A stretch of 58,843 nucleotides of DNA, taken from an uncultured Candidatus Saccharibacteria bacterium. GTDB lineage: Bacteria; Patescibacteriota; Minisyncoccia; Phycocordibacterales; CSBR16-119. Positions 17,517 to 58,843 of the stretch are shown piece after piece (position 1 is the first letter of the stretch; each line of letters opens with the position of its first letter). A program made the translations under genes and the position numbers. Below the pieces are notes generated by a model. It had not been told where the DNA came from, did not search any database, and saw nothing but the letters and a program-made list of their open reading frames with translations. The stretch is taken from positions 124,482-183,324 of the forward strand of contig CAZLAD010000001.1 of assembly GCA_964557535.1 (NCBI GenBank). Reading direction: 5' to 3'.

Positions 17517-17604
17517 ATATTTTCTTTGTCTAACCAAAGCTCCGACACGTTCTTTGTTTTCTGACCGTCCGTTTAAGTGGGCTGGAGGGGGGAAAATAAA
17601 TAAC

Positions 17605-22580: not shown

Positions 22581-22844
22581 ATGGAAAAAGGGGAATACAT
22601 AAAAAGAATTGAAGGTAAAAAAGAACACGCAACAGTATTTCAGGAATTTACAAAAGAACAACTTTACTCGGAAATCGAAAAGACAAAAAGAGTTCTTTCC
22701 GAATTGCTAAATCCCGATAATAAATCTGAGATGAATTTTAAACATGACACACTCGATACTGAATCCGGTGTAAATACTGAAGTGTATATGAAAAAACTCA
22801 AAGAACTAGAACAAGAACGTGACCGAAGAACACTCCTTAACTAA
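22581..22844 (+). CDS. hypothetical small coiled-coil protein
   Basis: 87 aa, K/E-rich. No family recognised. Confidence 0.45.
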   Translation: MEKGEYIKRIEGKKEHATVFQEFTKEQLYSEIEKTKRVLSELLNPDNKSEMNFKHDTLDTESGVNTEVYMKKLKELEQERDRRTLLN

Positions 22845-23839
22845 CGCCTCTTTATCACCTTTTTCACCGCGAGTTTGATATGACTAACGTCCATTCCGTA
22901 ATGGGCCAATAGTTCGTTTGGTTCGCCTGATTGACCGAACTCATCATGGACGCCGATAAATTCCTGAAAACATGGTTTGGTCTGTGACAGAGCTTCCGCG
23001 ACCGCGCTTCCCATTCCCCCAGCGATCTGGTGCTCCTCCACAGTCACGACTCGGCCGATAGAGGCGATGTATTCGATCATTTTCATATCGAGCGGTTTGA
23101 TCGTGGCCAAGTTTACGACGACTGTCTGAATTCCTTCATCTGCCAATTCTTTGGCGGCCACAAGCGCGTTGTGAGTGAGCGCGCCGGTTGAAACGATAGC
23201 GACGACTGGATCTTTAGACTTCCACATGATTTCAGCCTTTCCTATCTCAAAAGGTGTGTTTTTGGTCGTAATGACGGGAGTTTTCTCGCGGCCAAGGCGA
23301 ATATAGACCGGGCCACCCAGTTTGGCGGCGGCTAGAGTTGCCTTGCGAGCTTCTTCACTATCACAAGGATTGATCACCGTCATGTTTGGAAGCATGCGCA
23401 TGAGGCCAATGTCCTCGAGGGCTTGGTGTGTCGCACCGTCTGGGCCGACCGAGACGCCGGCATGACAACCGACGATTTTTACTGGCATATTGTTTATGCA
23501 GATCGTCGTGCGGATCTGTTCGTTATTTCGTCCAGGAGAAAATGAGGCGTAAGACATGATAAACGGAATCTTGCCGTAGTTTGCCATACCACTCGCAACT
23601 GTGGCGAGGTTTTGCTCAGCCACGCCAACCTCCACATATCTTTTCGGAAACTTTTCTTGGAACCAATGCGCGCGAGTAGACTCGGCGAGATCTGCACACA
23701 CTGCCACAACTCGCTCGTCTCCGTCAGCCGACGGATCACCAGCCTCCACCAAACCATGACCAAAACCATCCCTTGTCGGAATTTTCTCAACGTCCTTTGA
23801 AAATAGTTTATCGTTTAGTTTTTGGTTGGCGTTTAACAT
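22841..23839 (-). CDS. transketolase, C-terminal (pyrimidine-binding) subunit
   Basis: FGHGLVEAG...VGVAEQNLATVASGMA...GATHQALEDIGLMR: split-transketolase B-subunit motifs. Confidence 0.93.
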   Translation of the reverse strand: MLNANQKLNDKLFSKDVEKIPTRDGFGHGLVEAGDPSADGDERVVAVCADLAESTRAHWFQEKFPKRYVEVGVAEQNLATVASGMANYGKIPFIMSYASFSPGRNNEQIRTTICINNMPVKIVGCHAGVSVGPDGATHQALEDIGLMRMLPNMTVINPCDSEEARKATLAAAKLGGPVYIRLGREKTPVITTKNTPFEIGKAEIMWKSKDPVVAIVSTGALTHNALVAAKELADEGIQTVVVNLATIKPLDMKMIEYIASIGRVVTVEEHQIAGGMGSAVAEALSQTKPCFQEFIGVHDEFGQSGEPNELLAHYGMDVSHIKLAVKKVIKRR

Positions 23840-24138: not shown

Positions 24139-25002
24139 TTATTCACTATGTCCTCCCTCAATCTTCCCCTTCATCGTCCGCAATTCTTTCAGCCATTTTT
24201 GTTCCTGCTCCTTGTTTGGCGGAGTGCCATGCCATTTGTAATCGTATTCTATCTCTTTGATACCTTTGCCAGCAATCGTGTGGGCGATGATGACGGTCGG
24301 TTTCTCAACAATCGCTTTCGCTTGCTCCACCGCATCAACAATTTGCTCCATATTGTGTCCGTCAATTTCCAAAACGTGCCAATTAAAAGCCCGCCATTTA
24401 TCAGCCAAAGGCTCAAGCGGCATGACGCTTTCGGTGTTGCCGTTTATTTGGATATTGTTTCTGTCTATCACAACCGTCAGATTCGAGAGCTTGTTCGCGC
24501 CGGCAAACATGATTCCTTCCCAACTATTACCTGCATCTAGTTCACCGTCAGAGATGAAGCAATACGTGCGGAATTTCTTGCCATCCATTCGCGCCGCATA
24601 TGCATAGCCGGCAGATTGCGAGATACCAGACCCAAGCGGTCCGGAAGTATTTTCAAGCCCCGGCAATTTCTCGCGTTCCGGATGACCCTGAAGCCTAGAG
24701 CCAAATTTGCGAAGCGTCGAAAGTTCTTTGAGCGGGAAATATCCTGCATGAGCCATGGTGGCGTATCTGACAGGCACGATGTGACCGTTAGAAAGAAAGA
24801 GTCTGTCGCGCTCGGCCCAATCAGGCTTCTTCGGGTCGTGGTTCAAAATATGAAAATAAAACGCCGTGAAAACGTCCGTCATATCAAGCGGGCCCGCCGT
24901 GTGTCCCGATCCAGCGTCCTCAAGCATGTCGATGATACTTTGGCGAATTTCATTGGCCTTGATCAACAACTTTTTTTCTTTTAAAGGGTTTAGGTTAGAC
25001 AT
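24139..25002 (-). CDS. transketolase, N-terminal (TPP-binding) subunit
   Basis: GSGHTAGPLDM...SNGH...CFISDGELDAGNSWEG motifs. Confidence 0.93.
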   Translation of the reverse strand: MSNLNPLKEKKLLIKANEIRQSIIDMLEDAGSGHTAGPLDMTDVFTAFYFHILNHDPKKPDWAERDRLFLSNGHIVPVRYATMAHAGYFPLKELSTLRKFGSRLQGHPEREKLPGLENTSGPLGSGISQSAGYAYAARMDGKKFRTYCFISDGELDAGNSWEGIMFAGANKLSNLTVVIDRNNIQINGNTESVMPLEPLADKWRAFNWHVLEIDGHNMEQIVDAVEQAKAIVEKPTVIIAHTIAGKGIKEIEYDYKWHGTPPNKEQEQKWLKELRTMKGKIEGGHSE

Positions 25003-45638: not shown

Positions 45639-47660
45639 TTAAGTAGAGACATCTCTCACTTCATTGATAATCTTTGATTCTATATGCTCCAAATCTTTCA
45701 AGATTCTTGATTCTGTGGCAATTTCTTCGTCTGTAAGCCCTCTGCCTTCTTTTAGTTTTTTGAATATTTCTTTCTCTTTCTCTATATCACTATGAAGCAA
45801 TCTAAATCCATTTCGGATTGCTTCTTCTGCTTCGCGTACTTCTTTTATAAAATCTTGCTCTTTTTTCTTTGTTTCTCTATGGAAGTGAAGGATGTATGCC
45901 AAGAGACCAACGGTCACGACAACAAAGAATATAAACAAGATGAGATAAATCGTTCGAAAACTGAGTCTCGATCCGCCAATTTGAAGCGCTGTCTCTTCCA
46001 CGATAACACGCTCTTGGGCAGATGGAGGACTAACGAACTCGGCAAATGACGCTTGTGACCAAATAAGGTATTCCCCACCATTAAGGAAACCATCGTGTCG
46101 ATAGAACCACTCGCCCTTGTTGTCTGCTGTAACAACCCGGCTTTGTGTTTCGTTAGTTTTTTCGTTTTGTATATAGATAGTAACCGTTGATTCTCCAATG
46201 TCTACCTCACCACCGACATAAAAAATCTCTTCATTAGAAATATTATTAGATATTGCGGTAATAATAGGCGGAGTGAAGGTAACATCTTCTGCAAAAACAA
46301 TACTCGAAGAAAAAACGAACGAAGAAAACACTAAAAGGAAAAAGAGTGAAATATTTCCATACTTACTTCTGTATTTTTTAAGTTCCTCAAGCTGATCTTT
46401 TAATTTTTCAGAAACATCATATTTCCCCTTTCGATGATGAAGAGTATCGTGTCGTCTTTTAATGTAAACAAAAAGAATCGTAAGTGCAGCAATGACAAAC
46501 GCTATAATACCGATAAAAACTTGCCACGACACAAAGAAAGAATTTCCCAACTTTATCCCTTCAACAGAGGCAAAGCTAAAAACTTTACCGTAGAGAACCA
46601 TTTTTTCTGTAATATCTTTGAAATTTCCAGCCTGATCATAAGCTCGTACAACGACATCATATGAGCCAAGATCTAGGTTTTCCAAAATAAATGGACTTTG
46701 AGCTTCAATAAAGAATGGCTGATTACCCTCTACCAAGGAGGCGTTTTCTGATAACGGGATAATCTTTATTTCGTAATGATCGAGTCCGGAAAGTTGGTCA
46801 CTGGTACCAAATTTTATAATCGGTTTTGTCGAAGAGGTTTTACTAGAAGGTAGGATATCAACCTTAAAATCCGCCGGTGGTGTAGCGTCGATATAGGAAG
46901 CGAAATGTGTTTCCCCGCCCCAGATGCCATCACGCAAAGCTTTTATATGAAAATAGTACTGACCGTCTGATAAATCTTTGTAAGAAATAAATCGCTGAAT
47001 ACCCTCAGAAATATCGTCTATAACACTGACTGGCTCTTTGTTTAAAACATAACTATATCCAGAAACATTTTCTTCGTTTGCCCAACGCAAAACAAGATTA
47101 TTTTTAGAATACCATTTTGATTGTTCTGGATGAGTTTCGGAAACAACAATCGGACCAGCTGGTGGTGGAAGCTTGAGTTCAAATGAGGCGTTTACTTTAT
47201 TGGTCAAAACATCTGTTCCTAAACCATCATTAAGTAAGACCCTTGAAGCATCTTGGAACTTCACAATCGCAGAACCGACTGATTTCACTCGAAATGTGAG
47301 TGTGGCGACCATAGCACCAGAAAGATTTACGCCACCAGGAATTCCACCCTGAAGAGTAATCGTTCCTGTTTGATTATTAAACTTAGGCTGACTAGTCCAG
47401 ACCGAGATAATCGACTGGGATGTTTTTGGAGAGACGAGTTGCAATTTTTCCGGCGGAAATTTCAGCTCGACATCGATTGCATTAATTGATTCTCCTTCGG
47501 TATCAAGCATTATTGAAATATCAAATGTCGAATCTACATCAAAAGATGCTGTACTTGGTGTGATTTTAAGCTTGGCAGCAAACGTGGTGCCGGAAAAACC
47601 GAAAAATAAAAACAGAGTCAAAAAAACAAAAAATATATATTTATTAGAAATACCACCCAT
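45639..47660 (-). CDS. cohesin-like domain membrane protein (673 aa, 3 TM, Ig/FN3-like ectodomains)
   Basis: Signal peptide, then ITPSTASFDVDSTFDISIMLDTEGESINAIDVELKFPPEKLQLV...GTITLQGGIPGG...ATLTFRVKSVGSA...LLNDGLGTD (cohesin-type pattern). Internal TM helices and a cytoplasmic coiled tail follow. Confidence 0.7.
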   Translation of the reverse strand: MGGISNKYIFFVFLTLFLFFGFSGTTFAAKLKITPSTASFDVDSTFDISIMLDTEGESINAIDVELKFPPEKLQLVSPKTSQSIISVWTSQPKFNNQTGTITLQGGIPGGVNLSGAMVATLTFRVKSVGSAIVKFQDASRVLLNDGLGTDVLTNKVNASFELKLPPPAGPIVVSETHPEQSKWYSKNNLVLRWANEENVSGYSYVLNKEPVSVIDDISEGIQRFISYKDLSDGQYYFHIKALRDGIWGGETHFASYIDATPPADFKVDILPSSKTSSTKPIIKFGTSDQLSGLDHYEIKIIPLSENASLVEGNQPFFIEAQSPFILENLDLGSYDVVVRAYDQAGNFKDITEKMVLYGKVFSFASVEGIKLGNSFFVSWQVFIGIIAFVIAALTILFVYIKRRHDTLHHRKGKYDVSEKLKDQLEELKKYRSKYGNISLFFLLVFSSFVFSSSIVFAEDVTFTPPIITAISNNISNEEIFYVGGEVDIGESTVTIYIQNEKTNETQSRVVTADNKGEWFYRHDGFLNGGEYLIWSQASFAEFVSPPSAQERVIVEETALQIGGSRLSFRTIYLILFIFFVVVTVGLLAYILHFHRETKKKEQDFIKEVREAEEAIRNGFRLLHSDIEKEKEIFKKLKEGRGLTDEEIATESRILKDLEHIESKIINEVRDVST

Positions 47661-47662
47661 AA

Positions 47663-48580
47663 TTATTTTTTCTTGTGAAGATATTCAATGAGTTTTGATA
47701 AGCCGAATACCAAAACCACTAAACCTATAATTATTATAGCAATTTTGTAAGCTTTATTGATGAAACTATCCCCAGAAGCGTCAAGAGTCGGAATAATTTC
47801 AATAATGTTTTCGTTACCCGCAAAATCAACAGACTTCACGTAAATAAAACTCTTCAACTTTTGATCTTTCAAGATGGCAGGATTTTCTATCTCTCGCCAT
47901 TTTATTTCTTCGTTACCATAGAGTGTATCGAGTGGTAGTTGAATTTTCGATTCGAGCATATAAAATGATTCAACCCCTGAATCTGAATCTTCTGCACTAA
48001 ATGCTAAGAAATATTTACTATCAAAAGCCTTGTCGGTCTTTATAATACTTGCAACAAAGTTTTCTGGTGAAGACGCGTCACTAAGAATATCTTTAATTCT
48101 CCAAATTTTAGTATTATTCTTCTTCGGTAAAATATTAACGGAAGTATTGGTCATTGTAACCACATCACTCGTACCAGAACCATCGTTTAACAAGACCTTT
48201 ATATTGGTTAGACCGATAGATGCCCGACCTTCTCTGAGTGTTTTAAAGAAAAGTGTCACAACTTTACCGTTTGTGCCACGAAAACCTCCGGGGATAAGCC
48301 CTGAGAATTCAACCCTTCCAGAAGATGATTTGGGCTTAATACCCTTCAACCAATATTTCACAATGGAATCGCCCGTCTTGGGAGCTTCAAGAGAAACAAA
48401 TGTTGGATCAAATGTAATAGTACCGGAAATAGCATTTATTGGCTTGTCGGCTGTTATGAGAATAGTTGTTTGAATATACTCTCCCAAAGCAACATCTTTT
48501 GCTGGACTAAAAAAGACATCCGACGCCAAAGCGGTGTTAGCGACCAGAAATATTGTAAGGATTAAAAATAGGTGCTTCAT
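47663..48580 (-). CDS. cohesin-like domain protein with C-terminal TM anchor (305 aa)
   Basis: FFSPAKDVALGEYIQTTILITADKPINAISGTITFDPTFVSLE...GRVEFSGLIPGG...VTLFFKTLREGRA...LLNDGSGTSD parallels the N-domain of the previous gene. C-terminal TM segment. Confidence 0.7.
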   Translation of the reverse strand: MKHLFLILTIFLVANTALASDVFFSPAKDVALGEYIQTTILITADKPINAISGTITFDPTFVSLEAPKTGDSIVKYWLKGIKPKSSSGRVEFSGLIPGGFRGTNGKVVTLFFKTLREGRASIGLTNIKVLLNDGSGTSDVVTMTNTSVNILPKKNNTKIWRIKDILSDASSPENFVASIIKTDKAFDSKYFLAFSAEDSDSGVESFYMLESKIQLPLDTLYGNEEIKWREIENPAILKDQKLKSFIYVKSVDFAGNENIIEIIPTLDASGDSFINKAYKIAIIIIGLVVLVFGLSKLIEYLHKKK

Positions 48581-48583
48581 AGA

Positions 48584-49378
48584 CTAAATATCTGTCCAAT
48601 ACGACATCATAATACTAAAATCAACTATATCGATTATACCATCCTTGTTGAGATCAAATTCTTCTGGGAATCCATCTCTTTCAAACCAATAAATAAGCAC
48701 GGAAAAATCAATCAAATCAACACGTGTATCTTGATTGAGATCTACTTTTATCCCATCTCCACTAATTGGTGTAAACTCAAAATGGACAGGAACAGTCTGA
48801 TAAGATCCGCTACCACCACTACCGCTCGAACTTCCGCCACCGCCAGGACCCGAAGGTGTGACCGAGACTTCGTTTGAAGTTGCAGTCGGATCTCCTAGAG
48901 CATCGAGTGCGCGAACTACGAAGTAATACGTGGTGCCATTTGTAAGCCCGGTTACTGTATCGAGCAAAACATTCCCCACATTGGTATACGTATATCCTGA
49001 ACCAGAGGTTGTTGACTGACCGATTTCATACCCAGAAATATTTAAACCAAGCGAACCAACAGATGCCGTCCATGAGAGATCAGCTTCGGTGTCACCAGAA
49101 ACCCCGCTCAAAACTGGATTAGAAACGGTCGCAAAATATAAAAATCCCGCCAAATCAGTGAAATTTGTACTGGAACTCTCTCCAATCACTGTCTGGGCAA
49201 TACTAGAAAAATATTTAAAACTCGAAGAAGAAGAAAATCCTCCAGCCGGTGCAATTACCGGATCACGCAAGATAAAACTTGAACTCGTGTAATCTTCGGC
49301 AAGAGTAACTAACGGTGAAAAGACGACAGAAAAAATCGTCAGGAATAACCCCAAAAAGAAAGAAGAAGGAATCTTCAT
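48584..49378 (-). CDS. secreted FN3-domain protein with C-terminal type I dockerin-like duplicated Ca-binding repeats
   Basis: Signal peptide and an FN3-like segment (ADLSWTASVG...GYEIGQSTT...GTTYYFVVRALD). The C-terminus has DLNQDTRVDLIDFSVLIYWF and DLNKDGIIDIVDFSIMMSYW (two DxNxDGxIDxxDF segments). Confidence 0.75.
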   Translation of the reverse strand: MKIPSSFFLGLFLTIFSVVFSPLVTLAEDYTSSSFILRDPVIAPAGGFSSSSSFKYFSSIAQTVIGESSSTNFTDLAGFLYFATVSNPVLSGVSGDTEADLSWTASVGSLGLNISGYEIGQSTTSGSGYTYTNVGNVLLDTVTGLTNGTTYYFVVRALDALGDPTATSNEVSVTPSGPGGGGSSSGSGGSGSYQTVPVHFEFTPISGDGIKVDLNQDTRVDLIDFSVLIYWFERDGFPEEFDLNKDGIIDIVDFSIMMSYWTDI

Positions 49379-49455: not shown

Positions 49456-49499
49456 AGCCAAAGTAAAATCCCTCATTTTTGAGGGATTTTACTTTGGCT
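49456..49499 (-). terminator. 19-bp perfect hairpin (conserved-arm family, copy 3)
   Basis: agccaaagtaaaatccctc-attttt-gagggattttactttggct, 6 nt downstream of ORF 49505-49993. Confidence 0.5.
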
Positions 49500-49504
49500 C
49501 TAGG

Positions 49505-49993
49505 TTAGTTTCCTGTTGAAGTATCTGTTGTAGTAGATTCTGTTGCCTGAACTTGTACTGGGGCTGGTTTTGGAGCTGTTTGTTTTGTTTTTGTTGAATC
49601 GCCAATGTTGATTGGGGCAACTTCAATAATTTTATTTGCGACTGGATCAAAAAGGATGGCTTTCTTTGCTCCAGTATAAATCAAAACCTTGTTACCATTT
49701 TGAGCTTTGGCGAAAAATGGTTGATCTTTCAATTTTTCAATATCAGAAACAGTGGCAACCGTTGGTTGTTCATCTGTTGGCAACACGATGAGTTTTGAAA
49801 CTTGAGATACCAATCTATCAACTTCGGCTTGTGCTTCTTTGGTCGGATCAGCCTTGAGGGCTGAATATTGAGTATAAAGATAACCAACGGCTGCAACAAG
49901 AACAATTATAAGACCGATAAGCAATCTGTTTGCGCCTGAAATTTTTTTCATCATTGGACGAGTCGCTGAATTTGTTGTATTTTCACCTGCCAT
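49505..49993 (-). CDS. membrane-anchored hypothetical protein
   Basis: TM anchor (LLIGLIIVLVAAVGYLY), a small ectodomain and a T/P/Q-rich tail. Confidence 0.6.
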   Translation of the reverse strand: MAGENTTNSATRPMMKKISGANRLLIGLIIVLVAAVGYLYTQYSALKADPTKEAQAEVDRLVSQVSKLIVLPTDEQPTVATVSDIEKLKDQPFFAKAQNGNKVLIYTGAKKAILFDPVANKIIEVAPINIGDSTKTKQTAPKPAPVQVQATESTTTDTSTGN

Positions 49994-50085: not shown

Positions 50086-51081
50086 TTATTTACTAATTTG
50101 ATCGTACACGAACTTTGACAATTCCCGAATAGAGTTCTCCTGGGCCAAAAAATCAGTTCCTCTTGTCATAATGCAAAGAATATATGGTTTTTCTGGATAG
50201 TAAATAATTCCACAATCATGAAGTTGTGTTTGTTTTTCATCTCCGTTTTCGACAAACGAACGCTCACCAAACTTATGAGCAACAACGATATTGCTTGGAA
50301 CCCCTGCAACAATGCCATTTTTATATTCGGACACAGAGAGAATTTCAAGAGCAAGTTCAGACATTTCACGATTAAGATATGAGGCATTATAGAGAATACG
50401 GAAAAATCCAGCATAATCTTTGACTCGTACAATCGGCTCTGTTTTTGTATCAATAAATGGAACACCGATTGCCGAGAAAATATTTTTTATCTGTTTTGGA
50501 TCTGTGTGGTTCAAGATCGTCTGAGCAGCTATGTTGTCTGATCTCGTAATCATCGAATCTAAAATTTCTAAATATGAATATTCCTCTCCCACGACAACGG
50601 TACCCGAAGATGGTATATTTTGTTGAACCTTTATATCATCTTTTATACTGATGGTTTCTTTTTGATTCAATACTTCTACTTCTGATTCAATGCTTTTCAA
50701 AAAGGCCATCATGGTTGGGACCTTCAGTAAACTTGCTGGGTAAAACTCCTCTTTCTCTTCAATACCAATCCACTGCCCGTTGTTTAAGTCTCGGTAGTAG
50801 AGCGATATGTGATTTACACCATCCTCCCTTAATTCATCAACTTTTTTATTAATAAGACCGATTGGAATAGCTGTTTCACTCCCCGATACCAAATTTTCAT
50901 AATCAAGTATTGGGTTTGTTAATTTGTAAGTATTGTTAACATCTCGAGCGATAGATCCGGCGCTCACACTTTGTTCCCTTTTCCCAGAAAAAAGAAGCAC
51001 TCCAATAATACAAATAAGAACAATATTTATAATAAATAATATTTTTTTATCAGGAATTTTGATTTGCATTCGAATTTTCAT
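50086..51081 (-). CDS. beta-lactamase-fold (class A-like) serine hydrolase, membrane anchored
   Basis: SxxK (ASLLKV), SDN (RSDNIAA) and a KTG-like HKFGE motif. The ATG overlaps the giant gene's stop (TAATG). Confidence 0.65.
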   Translation of the reverse strand: MKIRMQIKIPDKKILFIINIVLICIIGVLLFSGKREQSVSAGSIARDVNNTYKLTNPILDYENLVSGSETAIPIGLINKKVDELREDGVNHISLYYRDLNNGQWIGIEEKEEFYPASLLKVPTMMAFLKSIESEVEVLNQKETISIKDDIKVQQNIPSSGTVVVGEEYSYLEILDSMITRSDNIAAQTILNHTDPKQIKNIFSAIGVPFIDTKTEPIVRVKDYAGFFRILYNASYLNREMSELALEILSVSEYKNGIVAGVPSNIVVAHKFGERSFVENGDEKQTQLHDCGIIYYPEKPYILCIMTRGTDFLAQENSIRELSKFVYDQISK

Positions 51082-54000
51082 TATAGTTCAGTCCCATCTG
51101 TCGAGCCAGAGCCCTCGTCACCACCATCGCTTGTTTGGTCACCGCCCGATGGTTCGCCATCCGAAATATCCTCTCCTCCACCATTTCCTTCGGTAGTAAC
51201 GTCAGAACCCGTATCTCCTCCACTATCCCCCTCTCCTTCTACCACCACTTCTTCCCCGCTTCCATCTTCAACAACCCCATCTTCCATTCCACCCTGATCA
51301 TCAACATCTGGTTCTGGCTCTGGTTGTGGTTCAGGCTCGGGCTCTGGTTCTGGAGCAGGTTCAGGTTCTGGAGCGGGGTCTGGCAAAGGCTCTGGTTCTG
51401 GAACAGGATCTGGAACTATTTCATCACCCGTCGGCACACCTTCGGTTGTTATAGCCCCGTTCACCGCAAGCGCAATCCATGAGAATTTAATATCCTCTGT
51501 AGCAGGCTGATTGAGAAGGATGGTAAATCCATTGACACTTTTTCTGGTGACTAGATAATTAATTCCTGAACTAAAGAATGCATCTTCGATGGTTGTATCT
51601 CCCAACACTTCACCTTCAACTGATTCCAAAGATATGTCGGCGCTGATGACTGGCTGTGTCAGATACGGTGTTGTGAAGACAATATCAACTTTCTTGGCTC
51701 CTTGTTTGATGACGGCAAATCCTGCGGTGTCGGAGTTAAAGTATGGTCGTCCGAAAAATACAACATCGTTCATCATATTGATCGCGGTGCCAAATGAGCT
51801 GATTGAATCGACAGTCAAACCTTCTGTATAAACTGACGGTGCAATAATCTCGACAGCGGCGGCAACTTTGTCCGTAAAGATACTTTGAAGTTCTGTGTCT
51901 TCATCGTATGTTGCTTTTGTGGCCTTGAGGAACGCCATGATTTCTTTTTCTGTCTTGATTGGATCATCGGCCAAGATTTCAGTTTCGAGTCCGCCAATAT
52001 CTAGATTTTCAAACTCACCATCAACATATTTTTGTGCGAGTTTATCTATATTTTCACCAAGCGAATCTGACAGTCCAACAAACACCATCGCATACCCGCA
52101 CAATTCTTCATCGCTATCTTCGTCAATATCAGATCCTTGAGAATCATTCACACTATCTTCTTCAAGATCACCCTCTCCAGCATCACTAGACACAACTCCT
52201 GGGCCATCACCTATTGCTTCGTCCAAATTTTCTGGAAGTGGAGCATCACACGAGTTCATAATTTCTGGCTCATTCAGCACTGTTCCAATAACAGCACCAG
52301 CTTTTGTGGCTTTCATCGCATAACCAAACTTACTCGATGATGTAAGTTTATCTCCAACATGAATCATGCCATTTTGGTTCGTAACTTTTACAGGAATTCG
52401 TCCAGCGAGGGCAACAGCATAAGCATTTGGAGCTGAAGCACCGATGGTTAGGGCAGGCTGTGTAGATACTACGCCGAGTAAATTCGTTTGATATGGAAGC
52501 ACTGACTGACTAATACCAGCTGGCTGGTCTGGCTGAATCGCCACGACATCTCCTGGCTCAAGTACACTATTTGAATAATAGTATTCGGCAAGGTCAGCAG
52601 ATCCGACGGCCCCAAATTCTAGACCTGAAGCCTGCATACCGTCGGCAATAAGCTCAGCACGGATGAGATTGATATTTCCGGCCAAGAAATCAAGCTCCTG
52701 TTGAACGTCTTTGTCTGGCATTTCTATCCACGTAGCAGCAGCAGAGCCCGTCGCGAGAATTCCTGATCTGACATCAATTGCTTGCATATCGTCATAATCA
52801 GTTCCTGTCCACTCTGAACCAGAATTGTCTGTTTTTTCACTATCTCCATGATAGACATCGCTTACAAAACTGTTTCCGAATCCTCCGAACACTGTCATAC
52901 CTCCGCCATCAGATCCTTGATCCGTACCAACATACAAACTCTGAGTTCTGCCCATAAATGGTTCTGTTGTTGCACCAACAGAAGAAACAATATTTGATGA
53001 ACCATAGAGAAATTCTGGCTTGATGGCAAAATCAGAGTCAGTTGATGGTGTGCTACTCCACGCAGGGCTGACCGTAAGAGTTGTTGCGGTATTTGAAGAA
53101 ACCCTGCGAGTTTGCCCCGCACCCGTACCGCTTGTAATCTCAACAATTTGACCGACGAATTCATTTGGAATCCAAGATTCTCCAGAATCAACAATCGTTG
53201 TTGAGGTTGCAGAGGTTGCATCACTAACCGCGATTGTTTTATGCTTCATTGCTTCAAGACCAGCAAGATATATCTTTCTTACTTGTGCTTGGTTTAATGT
53301 ATCAGTTGTTGTGGCACCTCCCATCGCAAAAACTAATTCATCCATGTCTCCATTGAAGAATTCCGCGGCTGTGGCACAGTTGGCAGAATTACACTTAGCA
53401 CCAACAGCAAGCATACTTTCAGCTGTTTCAAGAGTGGCTGTAGAAGATACACCTGTATCGGAAGCGACGAGCTTACCATCAACATAGAGGAAGAGACCAA
53501 CCGCCGCGTTTGCTCGCTGGAAGAACACATGGTGCCATTGGCTATCATCATAATCGTCTGTTGAACTTCCTGTATCTTCCGGGAATGTCGAGGTGTCATC
53601 GTCGACGCCAAACGCAACCTGGCCTGTGGTTGTAAGCCAAATTCTCCATCCAGAACCAGCTGTTCCAGCAGCAATCATCGTCTTGTCTACAAGTGTTTGA
53701 AGCGCGGAAACAGTTCCATTCGTCTTGAACCAAAATGATACGTGAAATGCCGTTGTTGTGCTTCTGAAATCTGTTTCAACGTCACAGGTACCATCATTGT
53801 TAACATCAGAACAAAGATAATCTGCAGACCCGTCAAATCGAAGACCATACCCACGAACACCATTCACGCCATATGTCGGTGCATTTTCTGGCTCCAAGAC
53901 ATTGTTTGTAAGCGCTGCATCAGTAAGATCTCCCGATGTATCTTCAAATTCATACATTCCTTTGTTCGTCGCTGCCATGTAATCTGTCTGCATTGCATTC

Positions 54001-57000
54001 GTATAAAACTTTGACCACGGCTGAACGGTTGCGGCAGAAACTCCATTCGTGTCGTGAATCTCTGTAAGACCGAGAGAGTGTCCAATATACAAAACATCTC
54101 CACGTCCCGTCGCCACCGTATCGACTTCGGCATAGGAACACTGTTCGCATACTTCAAGAGCATCCGGGGCGTTTGTGGCAATCGTCGGCGCTGATTTCCA
54201 AAGTGATGCTGGTCGTGTTGCTCCGTCAAAGAATTTTGATGCGGTGGTGACATCGGCCACCGACGTATCGACTGTGTTATTACCCGTGGTAATAAGACCA
54301 AAGCGATCTACCGATGAGTCTGTGGAATTAAGTCCGAAAAGTCGTCCACGTCTAGTCAAATAAACGGATTGATAGTTATCAGTTATAGCGCCACGACCGA
54401 AATCGTATGTGACTTGTTGAGCTGTATTTACCACCGATATACCGTCGTCTGTTGCAGCCACAGCAAATGTCACACCGTTTAATGGTCCTCCGTTTGTAAG
54501 CACGTTTGATCCTCCTTGAATAGTTGCAGCATGAACATCGTTCACCAAGTTACTATTCAAAGCCATGTTGGTCTTGGAATTTACGTTATAGGTAACCGTA
54601 GAATTTCTACCTGATATCGCTACATCTGCTTGACTGGCATTCGTGGTATTGTATCTAATCATCTTGTCCCCCGGGAAATCAAAGGCATACATTCCTGTTC
54701 CTGAAGATCCGTTGGTACCAACATAAATGATACCGTTTTGTGCAAATACCGATGACGGATTATTGTTTGAATCTGCACCCAAAGCACCCGTCGAAGCTTG
54801 TGTAAATTTCATCCATAGGTTATTTGAGTTAGCGTCAAAAATATAGAGTGCGTCGTTTGTCGCAGTAAGAATTGCTTTCTTAGGAAACGCTGATGTTCCG
54901 CAACGATCATCCGATGAAATATTACAAGCATCTCCCGCACCATCGTCTTTTGACTCTGTATACCAAGACACGACTTGTGATTTTGATGAATTTGTCCACG
55001 CACCACCATCAGTATCTCGTGCAGTGTCGTAAACAAAGACATCGTTTACATTTGAAATTGCGGTCTGGTCTATATAACCCTTTCTTACGATACTTCCATA
55101 AACATCCAGGTCGCCTCTACTTGCAGTACTTCCAACCGCAAGAAGTGTGCCCACCCCTGATGTGCCGTCAACGATAGAGAGTGTTCCTCTGTCAGTGAGT
55201 TGGAAGGTCACACTTGCATCTGCAAATTCGATGTCGCTATCAAAACCGGTTCCAATATAAAGTCCTGTCTCTGTTGCCGCTGTCGGCGTAATATTGTTGA
55301 GCGTAAGTCCTCGTAAAACATCGCCCGCAGCAGTACCACCGTTGGTGAGGGTGATATCGAGAGCACTGTTGGTATTGTCTGACCCATCTCCTGTGACAAA
55401 GTTTATCGCAAGCCCATCAACACCCGCTGTCGTCGTACCAAATCCCGCATTTGTGAGAGCTATTTGATCAACTGTTGGTGCAGCCGTTGCTGTAGCTTGG
55501 AAGTTTGTTCCTGCCGCCATATTAAGGATAAAATCTGATCCAGCGGTTGGTGCAAACGTGATAACTCCCGCATCGCTAAATGTCGCAATGTCTGTTGATC
55601 CGTCACGGATAGCAAAATCTCCAGAAGAATCCATGTCGATCGTAAATGCATTTGTGCCAAGGTTTATGTCGGTAGCTTCGTCGATATCTAAACTATTTTC
55701 AAGATCGATAAAATCAAGAGAGTCTGCGCTAATAGATCCTCCTCCACAAGAACCCCATTTGAAATCTCCTCCGCCAGAAGTTTCGTATTGTAGACATTCT
55801 CCATCTGCAGCCGCGCCATCTTCGGTGGCATAATCAAGATCAGCGGCAGCAATCGTACCGTCAAGAATTTCTGTGGTAGTCACCGCACCGGAGTCTATAT
55901 TCCACGTTGTACCAGAACCAGACACGGTTATATCTCCATAGTCAGCATCAGCTAAAGAGCCTGTACTGTCTGTCGAACAATCCCATGTATCAGTATCTTC
56001 TTCCCATTTCAAAATTCCTGCATCAGAACAACCCTGAAGAAGTGTGAGTCCATCTCCCTCTGTTTCAAGACCTGTTGCAGATGTTGTAATACCAACACCA
56101 TTACCTCCACCAAACAACGTTATCGAATCTGCATCAATAAATCCTGTTCCAAGAGTAAGTGCCACATCACTTGAACCAACGGTGATCGTTCCACCAACAT
56201 CAATATTTCCTGATGAACCAACAACGTCAAAGTTTGTGTAGTTTATATCGCCAGTTGAACCAGAAAGTGTTTGAGTTCCCATGGCAATAGTTCCACCAGC
56301 AGTGAAGGCGCCCAGTGTATCAGTTGAGTTATCAAAAGTAATTCCGCCATTGGCAGCAACAGCCGCTGTAAATGTCGCGCCGGCACCAGTAAATGCAGTC
56401 GTGGCAACTGTACCAATTGTTCCAGAAGTGGTGATTGCGTCCGCCCCAACATCAATCGCACCAAAGCCTGAAGTAATTGATCCAGCGTTAAGTGCCCCAA
56501 CAGTTGTCACATTTGAAAGAGTATCAAGCGCAGTTTCGATGTTTGATTCTGTCGTCGCATCAACAGTAAGACCTCCAGAAGTTGCAAGTACCCCAGTGAC
56601 AGTCACATCATTTGAGAATGTTACAATTCCATTTCCAAACGTTATCGTCGTATCTGTGCCAGAAACGTCAAATGTCCAAACGTTTGAGGCATTGGCACCA
56701 TCAGACCAAGTAGTGCTGTCGACTGTTGTAGAGTCAAAGCCCCCTCCTCCTGTGACATCCGCTTCACAATTCCAGTCATCGTCTGTCTCATCCCATTTCA
56801 ATATTTCATTGTCAGCACAACCCTGAAGAAGGGTCAACTGACCAGATTCAAATTCAAGTCCAGATGCTGATGAAGCAGTACCAACGCCATTTTCTGTAGA
56901 AGTTTTTAAATCAACCGCCACATCGTCACCAGTAAGCACCGTTCCGTCTCCGGCTGTTAAGTTAATATCATCAGAGACATCGAGTCCTGCGACATTACTC

Positions 57001-58843
57001 GTCCCAATATTTCCTGAAAGAGTTGAAGCTCCAAAGTTAAGAGTAAATCCGGCTCCTGTTGCACCACCAGTGAGTGTTCCAACAGTCGTGACATTTGAAA
57101 GAGTATCAAGTGCTGATTCAATTGTTGATTCAGTTGTTCCGTCAATTGCATCAAGGCCATTGAGTGTTCCTGTTCCTGTAAGGGTAAGTGTGTCAGCAGA
57201 TAGAGCCGTCGCTCCAAGCGCCCCCGTCGTTGCATCATACGTCAGTGCCCCATCCGTCTTTGGCGCAAGAGAACCAGTCGCCGAGTCATATATTCCAATG
57301 AATGATGTAGCGTCAGAGCCATCAACGACGGTGACGGTACCGGCAAGGGTAGCTGCGTCAACGGTAATGGTGTTTGGAATATCTGCATCAGTGAGTGAAG
57401 CACAGGTGAGGTTTCCATTGGCGGCAATGGTGGTCGCAAACGTGTTAGCACCACAATCTGTTGGGTTGGAAGCTAATGCAGTTGCCGTGTCGGCGTTCCC
57501 GGTGACATTTCCGGTTAGTCCTCCAACAAAGGTGGTGGCGGTAAGTGCATCAGTTGTAGCGTTGTAGGTGAGTCCGGCATCAGTTGCAGGAGCAAGAGAT
57601 CCAGTAGCAGCGGTGCCGAGAGCAACGAAGGTCGTGGTGTCTCCCCCAGCATCAGCGAAGGTGACGGTGCCCGATGTTGTTGCAGAATCAATTGTGATGT
57701 TGTTTGGAACTTGTCCATCGGTGACAGCGCCTTGAAGATCAGCCAGGTCGATGACGGATTCGAGTTCAGCTTCAACCGCCGCTTCGTCGATGTCGACGGC
57801 GGTAAGACCAGTACCATCAATGTCGCCGGCGATGTCGACGGCTGACTCAATGTTGCTTTCGGTCGTAGCGTCAACGGTAAGACCGCCGGAAGTTACAAGA
57901 GTGCCGGTAATATTGACGTCATCGGAAACATCGAATTCATTGTTTGTCGTGTCATATGCAAAAGTTTGGTCACCATCAGCATCATCAAATGTAAGGATCG
58001 TGCCAGCTGAACCATTGAAGGCAGCACCAGAAGCCACGTTACCAACAGCGGTGACGTCACCGGCTGCTGCCGCTGCCCATGATGGGTTCGCACCCACACC
58101 ACCGGTTTGCAAAACTTCTCCGGCGTTACCAGCCGCAAGTCGTACCCAGTTCGTACCATCGTAGTACATGAGGTCACCTTGAGCATCAGAACCAAGAGCA
58201 ATATCAGTTCCATCCACAGCATTGTCAGCGATGACAACGGCGGTAAGTCCAGTACCAGTGACATCACCACCAATATCAAGTGCAGATTCGAGCGTGGCTT
58301 CACCAGTGGCGTCGATGGCATCAAGACCGTTCAGTGTTCCCGTGTTGGTTAAGGTGAGTGTATCAGTTGAAACAATTCCAGTAGTAGTGAAGTTGTCAGC
58401 ACCGAGATTGATCGCACCAAAGCCTGAAGTAATTGATCCAGCATCAAGTGCCCCGACGGTTGTGAGTGATGATGTGAGGACGCTTGAGTTAAGTGTGGTG
58501 CCAGTAAGTGTGCCAGCAGCAGCGGTGACGGTAATAGCTGATGTTCCATCAAAGTTCACGCCGTTGATAGCTCGAGCGGTTGCGAGAGCAGTTGCAGTTG
58601 AGGCGTTACCGGTGAGTGCTCCGACAAATGATGTCGCCGACACCGCCCCCGTCGTTGCATCATACGTCAGTGCTCCATCAGTCTTTGGCGCAAGAGAACC
58701 GGTGGCTGAGTCATAGATGCCAATGAATGATGTGGCATCAGAGCCATCAACGACGGTGACGGTGCCGGCAAGGGTCGCTGCGTCAACAGTAATGGTGTTT
58801 GGAATATCTGCATCAGTGAGTGAAGCACAGGTGAGGTTTCCAT
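51081..58843 (-). CDS. giant repeat-rich surface fibre/adhesin-like protein, 5'-truncated by the window (>2586 aa)
   Basis: The reading frame stays open from the TAA at 51081-51083 to the window edge; the frame before the listed GTG at 58643 encodes a second copy of an internal 66-aa module. Contains tail-fibre-like T/G/A/S/D repeats, a LamG-like segment (~53320-53870), an ADLAEYY...GDVV segment (~52255-52625), an H-type-lectin-like segment (~51465-51740), a PEPE linker and an acidic tail. Confidence 0.9.
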   Translation of the reverse strand, partial: GNLTCASLTDADIPNTITVDAATLAGTVTVVDGSDATSFIGIYDSATGSLAPKTDGALTYDATTGAVSATSFVGALTGNASTATALATARAINGVNFDGTSAITVTAAAGTLTGTTLNSSVLTSSLTTVGALDAGSITSGFGAINLGADNFTTTGIVSTDTLTLTNTGTLNGLDAIDATGEATLESALDIGGDVTGTGLTAVVIADNAVDGTDIALGSDAQGDLMYYDGTNWVRLAAGNAGEVLQTGGVGANPSWAAAAAGDVTAVGNVASGAAFNGSAGTILTFDDADGDQTFAYDTTNNEFDVSDDVNITGTLVTSGGLTVDATTESNIESAVDIAGDIDGTGLTAVDIDEAAVEAELESVIDLADLQGAVTDGQVPNNITIDSATTSGTVTFADAGGDTTTFVALGTAATGSLAPATDAGLTYNATTDALTATTFVGGLTGNVTGNADTATALASNPTDCGANTFATTIAANGNLTCASLTDADIPNTITVDAATLAGTVTVVDGSDATSFIGIYDSATGSLAPKTDGALTYDATTGALGATALSADTLTLTGTGTLNGLDAIDGTTESTIESALDTLSNVTTVGTLTGGATGAGFTLNFGASTLSGNIGTSNVAGLDVSDDINLTAGDGTVLTGDDVAVDLKTSTENGVGTASSASGLEFESGQLTLLQGCADNEILKWDETDDDWNCEADVTGGGGFDSTTVDSTTWSDGANASNVWTFDVSGTDTTITFGNGIVTFSNDVTVTGVLATSGGLTVDATTESNIETALDTLSNVTTVGALNAGSITSGFGAIDVGADAITTSGTIGTVATTAFTGAGATFTAAVAANGGITFDNSTDTLGAFTAGGTIAMGTQTLSGSTGDINYTNFDVVGSSGNIDVGGTITVGSSDVALTLGTGFIDADSITLFGGGNGVGITTSATGLETEGDGLTLLQGCSDAGILKWEEDTDTWDCSTDSTGSLADADYGDITVSGSGTTWNIDSGAVTTTEILDGTIAAADLDYATEDGAAADGECLQYETSGGGDFKWGSCGGGSISADSLDFIDLENSLDIDEATDINLGTNAFTIDMDSSGDFAIRDGSTDIATFSDAGVITFAPTAGSDFILNMAAGTNFQATATAAPTVDQIALTNAGFGTTTAGVDGLAINFVTGDGSDNTNSALDITLTNGGTAAGDVLRGLTLNNITPTAATETGLYIGTGFDSDIEFADASVTFQLTDRGTLSIVDGTSGVGTLLAVGSTASRGDLDVYGSIVRKGYIDQTAISNVNDVFVYDTARDTDGGAWTNSSKSQVVSWYTESKDDGAGDACNISSDDRCGTSAFPKKAILTATNDALYIFDANSNNLWMKFTQASTGALGADSNNNPSSVFAQNGIIYVGTNGSSGTGMYAFDFPGDKMIRYNTTNASQADVAISGRNSTVTYNVNSKTNMALNSNLVNDVHAATIQGGSNVLTNGGPLNGVTFAVAATDDGISVVNTAQQVTYDFGRGAITDNYQSVYLTRRGRLFGLNSTDSSVDRFGLITTGNNTVDTSVADVTTASKFFDGATRPASLWKSAPTIATNAPDALEVCEQCSYAEVDTVATGRGDVLYIGHSLGLTEIHDTNGVSAATVQPWSKFYTNAMQTDYMAATNKGMYEFEDTSGDLTDAALTNNVLEPENAPTYGVNGVRGYGLRFDGSADYLCSDVNNDGTCDVETDFRSTTTAFHVSFWFKTNGTVSALQTLVDKTMIAAGTAGSGWRIWLTTTGQVAFGVDDDTSTFPEDTGSSTDDYDDSQWHHVFFQRANAAVGLFLYVDGKLVASDTGVSSTATLETAESMLAVGAKCNSANCATAAEFFNGDMDELVFAMGGATTTDTLNQAQVRKIYLAGLEAMKHKTIAVSDATSATSTTIVDSGESWIPNEFVGQIVEITSGTGAGQTRRVSSNTATTLTVSPAWSSTPSTDSDFAIKPEFLYGSSNIVSSVGATTEPFMGRTQSLYVGTDQGSDGGGMTVFGGFGNSFVSDVYHGDSEKTDNSGSEWTGTDYDDMQAIDVRSGILATGSAAATWIEMPDKDVQQELDFLAGNINLIRAELIADGMQASGLEFGAVGSADLAEYYYSNSVLEPGDVVAIQPDQPAGISQSVLPYQTNLLGVVSTQPALTIGASAPNAYAVALAGRIPVKVTNQNGMIHVGDKLTSSSKFGYAMKATKAGAVIGTVLNEPEIMNSCDAPLPENLDEAIGDGPGVVSSDAGEGDLEEDSVNDSQGSDIDEDSDEELCGYAMVFVGLSDSLGENIDKLAQKYVDGEFENLDIGGLETEILADDPIKTEKEIMAFLKATKATYDEDTELQSIFTDKVAAAVEIIAPSVYTEGLTVDSISSFGTAINMMNDVVFFGRPYFNSDTAGFAVIKQGAKKVDIVFTTPYLTQPVISADISLESVEGEVLGDTTIEDAFFSSGINYLVTRKSVNGFTILLNQPATEDIKFSWIALAVNGAITTEGVPTGDEIVPDPVPEPEPLPDPAPEPEPAPEPEPEPEPQPEPEPDVDDQGGMEDGVVEDGSGEEVVVEGEGDSGGDTGSDVTTEGNGGGEDISDGEPSGGDQTSDGGDEGSGSTDGTEL

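Follow-up and report, generated by a model that had tools for sequence, protein, structure and literature searches.

The locus

The subject of this analysis is a set of three consecutive minus-strand genes, here called genes A, B and C and collectively the trio, which lie in a 58,843-nucleotide (nt) stretch of DNA from an uncultured Candidatus Saccharibacteria bacterium (GenBank assembly GCA_964557535.1, contig CAZLAD010000001.1, positions 124,482 to 183,324 of the forward strand). This whole stretch is referred to as the window. The trio encodes one secreted protein that ends in a dockerin and two membrane-anchored proteins that begin with cohesin-like domains. Its position and strand had been proposed by a model from the letters alone (the sequence-only reading), and the open reading frames (ORFs) confirm both, with gaps of 3 nt at the A/B junction (TAG-tct-ATG) and 2 nt at the B/C junction (TAA-tt-ATG). 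Spacing this tight across all three genes suggests translational coupling. Lengths are in amino acids (aa).

48584..49378, minus strand: gene A, 264 aa, a secreted putative adaptor with signal peptide, docN module, FN3 domain, Gly/Ser linker and C-terminal dockerin (ORF, Pfam, homologs, AlphaFold2 model)
47663..48580, minus strand: gene B, 305 aa, with signal peptide, cohesin-like domain, immunoglobulin (Ig)-like domain, transmembrane (TM) segment and a tail of ~9 aa (ORF, family, model, fold search)
45639..47660, minus strand: gene C, 673 aa, a second membrane-anchored cohesin protein (ORF, homologs)

Relatives were collected in a scan of GTDB species representatives, in which 153 were found and 80 loci kept (handles of the form L001 refer to these), and iterated hidden Markov models (HMMs) built from the window's own domains were mapped onto 83 sources. 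Enough upstream sequence to include the dockerin gene is present in 74 sources, namely 73 loci and the window, and counts given below as fractions of 74 refer to these.

Gene A and its dockerin

The following features can be recognized in gene A, for which 515 homologs were found.

49298..49378, minus strand: signal peptide, aa 1-27, ending ...VTLA before EDY; read from the sequence, with a helix at 5-19 in the model
49124..49297, minus strand: docN, aa 28-85, a conserved Ser/Thr-rich region with three SxxF-type motifs and the end GFLYF
48851..49123, minus strand: FN3 domain, aa 86-176; Pfam fn3 26.8 bits (cut-off 25) at aa 86-172
48593..48748, minus strand: dockerin, aa 211-262, two repeats of calcium loop plus helix at the extreme C-terminus

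The protein had been described as a secreted FN3-type protein ending in two dockerin-type segments, and this description is upheld by Pfam, where fn3 and Dockerin_1 both score above their cut-offs. Dockerin_1 (PF00404) matches aa 213-260 with 28.6 bits against a cut-off of 22.9 (E=1.7e-6); relatives in L002 and L001 score 35.7 and 23.4 bits, respectively. The two repeats, DLNQDTRVDLID and DLNKDGIIDIVD, both match the calcium loop D1-x-N3-x-D5-x-x-x-D9-x-x-D12 followed by a helix, and in the AlphaFold2 model, which was built on 36 homologs, the dockerin helices occupy residues 222-230 and 251-259 with a predicted local distance difference test score (pLDDT) of 84-93. The FN3 domain is modelled at pLDDT 94-98 and its top Foldseek matches are all FN3 domains. 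The docN region, found by a family HMM in 23 of the 74 dockerin proteins including that of the window, has invariant residues P40, S51 and G78; modelled alone (aa 26-76) it stays below pLDDT 50. Past the signal peptide, gene A has neither a TM segment nor any other anchor.

Calcium-binding repeats of this kind could also belong to generic EF-hand or thrombospondin-type proteins, and the dockerin assignment was set against both. The window dockerin scores 14.3 bits with EF-hand_1 (cut-off 25.4) and 9.9 bits with EF-hand_5, both below cut-off, and gene A has no Pfam match to the thrombospondin repeat TSP_3. A profile made from 24 family dockerins and compared with the PDB aligns over both repeats with true dockerins (2y3n_B, E=3e-8; A. 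cellulolyticus DocCel5, E=2e-6; CelS, E=1e-5), whereas EF-hand proteins appear in the same search at E values of 0.004 or higher and over one repeat only. The dockerin is thus preferred in the Pfam comparison and in the profile search alike.

Across the 74 loci the dockerin always stands at the extreme C-terminus, and its consensus is K[GA]DLNxDxRVNLVDFSIAAYWYKRP......DLNGDGKVDLxDFSIMAYYWTG, in which Asp19, Ser21, Trp26, Asp48, Ser50 and Trp56 (alignment positions) are invariant. The calcium-ligand positions are kept in 65 to 74 of the 74 sequences, with the exception of position 1 of the second repeat, which is Asp in 37. Identity to the divergent copy of the window is ~45-55%, and is higher among canonical copies. 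The window protein belongs to a short form of ~250-275 aa, also seen for example in Niyogibacteria. Most relatives have a Big_6-type Ig module that is missing from this form, whose dockerin is a subtype of its own, with DFSIMYYWF(D/E)K in place of DFSIAAYWYKR in helix 1 and extra residues past the last Trp. The word minimal, applied to the set in the sequence-only reading, therefore fits gene A as a short form without the Ig module; it does not fit the trio, which belongs to a conserved family of very large size.

The cohesin-like domains of genes B and C

Gene B consists of an N-terminal domain, a stalk and a membrane anchor.

48116..48520, minus strand: cohesin-like domain, aa 21-155; sub-threshold for Pfam Cohesin, cohesins in Foldseek
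47810..48079, minus strand: Ig-like stalk, aa 168-257, with beta strands in the model (HMM 'ig305'); paralogous to gene C aa 258-346 (E=1e-5)
47690..47752, minus strand: C-terminal TM anchor, ~aa 277-297 by hydropathy; helix 272-304 in the model

A cohesin-like N-terminus and a C-terminal TM anchor had been read from the sequence of this 305-aa protein, and the fold search and hydropathy agree with that reading, with the Pfam Cohesin score remaining below its cut-off (see below). The N-terminal domain is modelled at pLDDT 58-83, mostly above 70, and its structural matches assign it to the cohesin fold, a nine-stranded beta-sandwich of jelly-roll type. Foldseek returned seven matches to the model at E<=1e-3, all of them cohesin-containing entries, and ~45 of the 50 matches listed are cohesins, nearly all with a probability of 0.96-1.0. 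The best match is 2w1n, the cohesin and FN3 double module of C. perfringens GH84C (E=1e-6, probability 1.0), and the target-normalised TM-score against single cohesins reaches 0.68 (2jh2). A search of the PDB with the single sequence of gene B gave chance-level matches only, while a profile of 54 B-family members reached Ruminococcus flavefaciens (R. flavefaciens) cohesins at E=0.002-0.06, with 5aoz at E=0.002. An exhaustive HMMER search placed the B family in 7170 clusters at 50% identity, a count that includes C-type paralogs; 2053 of these have E<=1e-30, and most are full-length proteins of ~300 aa. B proteins share ~30% identity.

Gene C is built from similar parts and is longer.

47166..47576, minus strand: cohesin-like domain, aa 29-165; family cohN HMM E=2e-36
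46581..47165, minus strand: Ig-like modules, aa 166-360; Pfam Big_13, Y_Y_Y and DUF7743 all sub-threshold; paralogous to the Ig-like domain of B
46287..46550, minus strand: TM hairpin with a short cytoplasmic loop, aa 371-458; TM segments starting at 371 and 436 by hydropathy
45972..46286, minus strand: membrane-proximal Ig-like domain, aa 459-563 (HMM 'c673_tail')
45642..45971, minus strand: last TM segment and charged cytoplasmic tail, aa 564-673

The N-terminal domains of C and B share 35% identity over 115 aa (E=3e-14), and the second Ig-like module is likewise paralogous (E=1e-5). This paralogy, together with a signal peptide and three hydropathy-predicted TM segments starting near aa 371, 436 and 564, bears out the earlier description of gene C as a 673-aa protein with a paralogous cohesin-like N-domain, Ig modules and three TM helices. 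The cohesin fold was modelled for B, and C is tied to it by the homology just given. A homolog of C in L001 (35% identity over 363 aa) passes the Pfam Cohesin threshold at 41.6 bits; PF00963 is also found on 14 of 120 listed relatives of C, several of which are named 'cohesin domain-containing protein' by NCBI or UniRef. Because such homologs pass PF00963, membership of the cohesin superfamily follows by transitive homology in spite of the sub-threshold copies of the window. Taken with the model of B, these sequence comparisons indicate that the N-domains of both proteins are divergent members of the cohesin superfamily.

Among the relatives of C listed, at least 120 clusters share 45-52% identity with it over 95-100% of its length, and one is near-identical at 98%. 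The arrangement of TM, loop and TM recurs in L014, L081 and most close homologs of C, and the second TM of the hairpin resembles an internal signal peptide. Most of the 80 GTDB loci have a gene C with a single late TM; the three-TM form is a large conserved clade (the clusters just mentioned). The membrane-proximal Ig-like domain is homologous to the Big_6-type Ig module that most dockerin proteins have and that gene A of the window lacks: the 'c673_tail' HMM matches gene C as well as gene A proteins of other loci, and Big_6 is found in the dockerin proteins of L001 and L002. The cytoplasmic tail has a median length of 86 aa in 68 loci and follows the pattern KE..EAE..LHK.F..LKEDI...KR.LT.EE...KEI.DIEK.

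Conservation of the trio

The order A-B-C is identical in all 74 sources with enough upstream sequence. Each of them has exactly one dockerin ORF, on the same strand and directly upstream of a B-type gene, with a C-type gene always next in line. In the nine sources without a dockerin ORF, the contig ends ~650 nt or less from the anchor gene. The window as a whole (58.8 kb) contains exactly one dockerin and two cohesin-like domains according to the family HMMs. Extra cohesin-TM paralogs are present at some loci, for example L016, L030, L020 and L059.

Collinear fusions of B and C occur in at least 10 representative clusters, and in these the TM of B and the signal-peptide-like TM of C are kept as a hairpin. 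Such fusions may serve as Rosetta-stone evidence that B and C act together; because the two genes frequently overlap, some of the fusions may stem from frameshifts or errors of gene calling. With the invariant gene order and the single dockerin per locus, the fusions considerably strengthen what the sequence-only reading had proposed in outline, a set of membrane-anchored receptors with one ligand-bearing secreted protein.

Nearly all kept loci carry titles from the Patescibacteria, or Candidate Phyla Radiation (CPR): Wolfe-, Vogel-, Taylor-, Jorgensen-, Azam-, Kaiser-, Sung-, Portnoy-, Komeili-, Magasanik-, Falkow- and Doudnabacteria, among others. The origin of these relatives places the host of the window in the CPR as well. 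Judged from gene order and homology, the trio is a conserved operon across the CPR and not a one-off, and the copy in the window is an ordinary member of this widespread family. Other titles (Gammaproteobacteria, Deferribacteres, Candidatus Methylomirabilis) are attached to loci such as L006, L009, L015, L017, L019, L025 and L027, and one relative, protein P0246, is labelled 'Bathyarchaeia'. Mis-binning or mislabelling of contigs is the probable cause, and not a true presence of the trio outside the CPR.

Databases automatically name some relatives 'cohesin domain-containing protein' or 'dockerin type I repeat-containing protein', and most are 'hypothetical'; exact look-up of eight L001 and L002 proteins in public databases returned no names. 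The cohesin-dockerin interaction itself is known, including non-cellulosomal pairs. As new features may be counted the conserved three-gene operon, the membrane-anchored receptors, the B+C fusions and the cargo-linked subtypes described below, for which no paper was found in the full-text literature searched, a body of text that covers few subscription journals.

Upstream genes and two subtypes

Upstream of the trio, the window contains a hairpin and three further genes.

49456..49499, minus strand: 20-bp perfect hairpin that directly follows the stop codon of the 162-aa gene and precedes gene A by ~80 nt
49505..49993, minus strand: 162-aa N-terminally anchored membrane protein, a subtype-specific partner gene with 46% identity to its L001 counterpart
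50086..51081, minus strand: class-A beta-lactamase-family protein, 331 aa (Pfam Beta-lactamase2, E=6e-37), between the giant and 162-aa genes
51081..58843, minus strand: giant fibre-like protein gene, >2586 aa, with its 5' end beyond the window and the ORF open to the window end

The trio had been placed just downstream of the giant gene. The two do not adjoin, as the beta-lactamase-like gene and the 162-aa gene intervene. The upstream translation of the giant ORF is a Thr/Ala/Gly-rich repeat without a stop or a plausible start. Its sole Pfam match is a marginal Laminin_G_2 (23.2 bits), family HMMs detect no cohesin or dockerin domain in it, and residues ~1995-2112 share 39% identity with a segment of the L001 fibre-like protein. 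The 162-aa protein has no family match in Pfam or NCBIfam, and its L001 counterpart lies directly upstream of the L001 dockerin gene. The beta-lactamase-family protein begins with an N-terminal TM segment and could be like a penicillin-binding protein (PBP) or have a cell-wall function; homologs adjoin the giant gene in the same position in L016, L029, L054 and L076.

When loci with at least 1.2 kb of upstream sequence are compared, the N-terminal module of gene A and the genes upstream of it vary together. Loci whose dockerin protein has docN (n=21) have a giant-gene homolog upstream in 11 cases, against none of the 45 non-docN loci, so that the link to the giant gene seen in the sequence-only reading is real but belongs to one subtype only; apart from the window, 10 loci have such a homolog upstream of the trio. 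The 162-aa gene follows the same division (12/21 docN-type loci against 2/45). A gene resembling the WxL-interacting protein (WxLIP) shows the reverse, being present in 39/45 non-docN loci and in 0/21 of the docN type, and it is absent from the window; 34 of 41 such WxLIP-like ORFs lie on the same strand within 150 nt upstream of the dockerin gene.

Two loci may illustrate the subtypes. L001 has, in order, a giant fibre-like gene, a Laminin_G protein, the homolog of the 162-aa protein (46%), a docN-FN3-Ig-dockerin gene (47-51% identity) and the cohesin-TM genes. L002 has secreted proteins of 686 and 241 aa with a common C-terminal domain upstream of its trio, followed by a 321-aa protein with signal peptide, Ig and TM, which matches PF06030 (WxL-interacting protein, formerly DUF916) below threshold (E=3e-5, 24.4 bits against 27.3). 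The secreted proteins of ~241 and 686 aa in this sister subtype (L002 5054-8930; also L020, L045, L069, L081, L062 and L035) end in ...SSPITFTATT. Agreement between the N-terminal module of A and the upstream gene set is what would be expected of an adaptor that stands between a constant anchor and a variable cargo.

A proposed docking module on the cytoplasmic membrane

The reading favoured here, to which a probability of roughly 60% is assigned, is that the trio forms a membrane-anchored cohesin-dockerin docking module that displays lineage-specific surface proteins. Proteins B and C would be exported by the Sec pathway and kept in the cytoplasmic membrane by their C-terminal TM helices, with their Ig-like stalks holding the N-terminal cohesin away from the membrane. 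Protein A, secreted and without an anchor of its own, would plug its C-terminal Ca2+-dependent dockerin into the cohesin of B, of C or of both (each trio encodes one dockerin with two near-symmetric repeats and two different cohesins), and its N-terminal modules (docN and FN3 in the window) would thereby be displayed on the cell. These modules could then act as the adaptor for co-encoded lineage-specific surface proteins. In the subtype of the window, the cargo engaged by docN and FN3 would probably be the giant fibre-like protein, which is a candidate for this role, and/or the 162-aa membrane protein; in the other subtype it would be secreted proteins together with the WxLIP-like membrane protein. 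The cytoplasmic tail of C, conserved and ~85 aa long, suggests a link to the cell interior. Both the binding of dockerin to cohesin and the identity of the cargo are what we infer from domain content and gene association. A precedent for expression exists: Bell et al. used metaproteomics to detect proteins with cohesin and dockerin domains from a CPR bacterium, and read them as a cellulosome.

Several observations weigh against this reading. Pfam Cohesin (PF00963) gives gene B 16.9 bits (E=0.008), below the cut-off of 24.1, is matched at E<=0.01 by just 5 of 54 B-family members, and has no match to gene C at E<=1; the model of gene B is of moderate quality, with an overall pLDDT of 67. In 24 of the 74 dockerins the first calcium ligand of the second repeat is Arg or Lys (E[RK]LNGDG), where the window has Asp, and a third of the family may have a degenerate second calcium site. 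The dockerin is also much more conserved than the cohesins (~30% identity for B), which is unusual for a specific pair that co-evolves; this could point to another, more constrained partner. On the side of the cargo, the giant protein has no recognisable partner motif for cohesin, dockerin or docN, and co-transcription of the trio with the giant and 162-aa genes is doubtful in view of the hairpin between them. This hairpin is strong (free energy, dG, -33 kcal/mol; z-score -9.2; 0 of 200 shuffles as good), it is followed by no T-run in the sequence, and it may be a variant terminator, an attenuator or an RNA-stability element. The trio may consequently be transcribed apart from its presumed cargo genes.

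The uneven conservation of the two partners leads to the alternative that survives best, although it is considered unlikely. It retains a single envelope structure, in which the dockerin binds some other ligand (a cell-wall or host glycan, another protein, or Ca2+) and the cohesin-like domains are carbohydrate-binding or form purely structural tips of stalks. An invariant non-protein ligand would be expected to leave the dockerin far more conserved than the cohesin-like domains. The cohesin jelly-roll is similar to the folds of carbohydrate-binding modules (CBMs), the cohesin-like domains of the window are sub-threshold for Pfam Cohesin, and a relative of A bears the name 'cell wall-binding protein' in one source. 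This alternative does not sit well with the strict co-occurrence of one dockerin with two cohesins in an invariant order at 2-3 nt spacing; moreover, the fold matches are true dockerin-binding cohesins and not CBMs, and A would be left with no other means of staying on the cell.

A quite improbable alternative treats the trio as fibre or pilus assembly machinery. The Pam pilus, a Sec-dependent surface appendage specific to the CPR, contains Ig/FN3 modules and beta-sandwich proteins of two domains that are anchored by a C-terminal TM; it occurs in genomes that have a 'tail fibre-like' gene, and it has no dockerin (Troman et al. 2026, bioRxiv 10.64898/2026.03.03.709456). By analogy B and C would be chaperone-like, as are PamC and PamD, and A would be a tip or adaptor whose unstructured N-region is completed by strand exchange. 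The architecture of B (signal peptide, two beta-sandwiches, C-terminal TM) parallels that of PamC/PamD, a giant fibre-like gene lies upstream, and the N-region of A, conserved yet below pLDDT 50 when modelled alone, has a weak NCBIfam match to PamT. That match (NF058579), however, extends over the signal peptide and scores 23.2 bits where the cut-off is 240, and no Pam family matches were found on the neighbours in L001 and L002 or on 10 other window proteins. The trio differs from the Pam pilus in lacking Pam family membership and in that B matches cohesins, with no PapD/FimC-like chaperone among the 50 listed Foldseek matches, and a pilus machinery would leave the near-invariant C-terminal dockerin unexplained.

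That the trio is a miniature cellulosome or another polysaccharide-degrading complex is very improbable, even though Bell et al. interpreted CPR cohesin and dockerin proteins in this way and the closest sequence and fold matches are cellulosomal modules, for the sole dockerin of the window and of each of the 73 related loci sits on a non-enzymatic FN3/Ig protein, the neighbourhood contains no glycoside hydrolase, CBM or multi-cohesin scaffoldin (proteins have one cohesin, or two in B+C fusions, and no CBM), and the flanking genes are greA, lysS, mraZ, rsmH (mraW) and a PBP gene; the statement in the sequence-only reading that this is not a cellulosome thus holds.

Comparison with known systems

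Cohesin-dockerin pairs are widespread outside cellulosomes. Among cellulosomal pairs, the anchoring scaffoldins of Clostridia (C. thermocellum OlpA, OlpC and SdbA; 3ul4, 4dh2, 2bm3) employ the same two module families as the trio, a C-terminal duplicated EF-hand-type dockerin and a single cohesin on a cell-bound protein, surface retention being a prediction in the case of the trio. The anchor of the trio is a cytoplasmic-membrane TM helix, unlike the S-layer homology (SLH) or sortase attachment of these scaffoldins. The trio also departs from cellulosomes in its dockerin carrier, a non-enzymatic FN3/Ig protein, in its two paralogous single-cohesin receptors, and in the absence of scaffoldin, CBM and enzymes; compared with cellulosomal cohesins, those of the window are very divergent and sub-threshold for PF00963.

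A closer likeness in layout is offered by the glycoside-hydrolase and toxin complexes of Clostridium perfringens (2w1n, 2jh2, 2vo8), in which the cohesin-dockerin interaction is used outside cellulose degradation and GH84C has a cohesin followed by FN3, similar to the layout of gene B. There the modules are located on secreted enzymes that assemble together, whereas those of the trio are on membrane-anchored stalks and a dedicated adaptor encoded in a fixed three-gene operon.

The WxL/Csc clusters of Firmicutes consist of WxL proteins, a DUF916/WxLIP membrane protein and a small anchored protein. They resemble the trio in being operon-encoded, multi-protein, non-covalent surface complexes (as proposed for the trio), and the WxLIP-like gene of most non-docN loci adds to this likeness. 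They are unlike the locus of the window, which has no WxLIP-like gene, and the secreted proteins that accompany the sister subtype showed no WxL domain. To our knowledge, Firmicute WxL/Csc clusters contain no cohesin or dockerin.

Two candidate parallels were set aside. SEML1_0315, an essential 'dockerin' protein of Southlakia, is a 927-aa Ig-repeat protein with unrelated neighbours and represents a different type of locus; neither 'cohesin' nor 'dockerin' occurs in the accompanying supplements. The Omnitrophota 'dockerin-type giant proteins' and the cohesins from camel rumen are unrelated to the trio.

Other features of the window

Around the trio, on its downstream side, are greA, lysS, mraZ, rsmH (mraW) and the PBP gene. 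An F-type ATP synthase region at ~7-12 kb of the window is assigned from ORF sizes and order only. Two separate genes at 22841-23839 and 24139-25002, both on the minus strand and ~300 nt apart, together encode transketolase, one its N-terminal half and one its C-terminal half. A 467-aa protein at 16134-17537 (minus strand) has a weak MltB-like lytic-transglycosylase match at aa 276-417 (E=2e-5, far below the cut-off) and may be a cell-wall enzyme. DNA of the locus was found in wastewater and activated-sludge metagenomes; the sequencing runs listed as carrying it are DNA metagenomes only, with no RNA runs among them.

Significance

Type IV pili and the newly described Pam pilus account for most of what is known about how the Patescibacteria, a large group of ultra-small bacteria, build their surface and attach to hosts, and most of their envelope proteins are 'hypothetical'. 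The module described here accounts for thousands of sequence clusters and extends over many CPR lineages, and the family seems to be uncharacterised. It predicts Ca2+-dependent binding of a dockerin of ~55 aa to two membrane-anchored cohesins, in a modular logic of constant anchor and swappable cargo genes. A bolder extension, which is tentative and on balance improbable, is that the trio is a general 'socket' for interchangeable lineage-specific attachment organelles, giant fibres in the subtype of the window and WxL-type complexes in the other, with the near-invariant dockerin as a universal plug and the tail of C coupling surface events such as host contact or load to the interior. If true, such a socket would be a core host-interaction device throughout the CPR, comparable in importance to type IV pili, in a cell without an outer membrane. 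If confirmed, the docking module would help to identify which surface proteins each lineage displays, and CPR cohesin and dockerin genes would no longer be read by habit as 'cellulosomes'; protein engineering would also gain a natural cohesin-dockerin pair of very small size.

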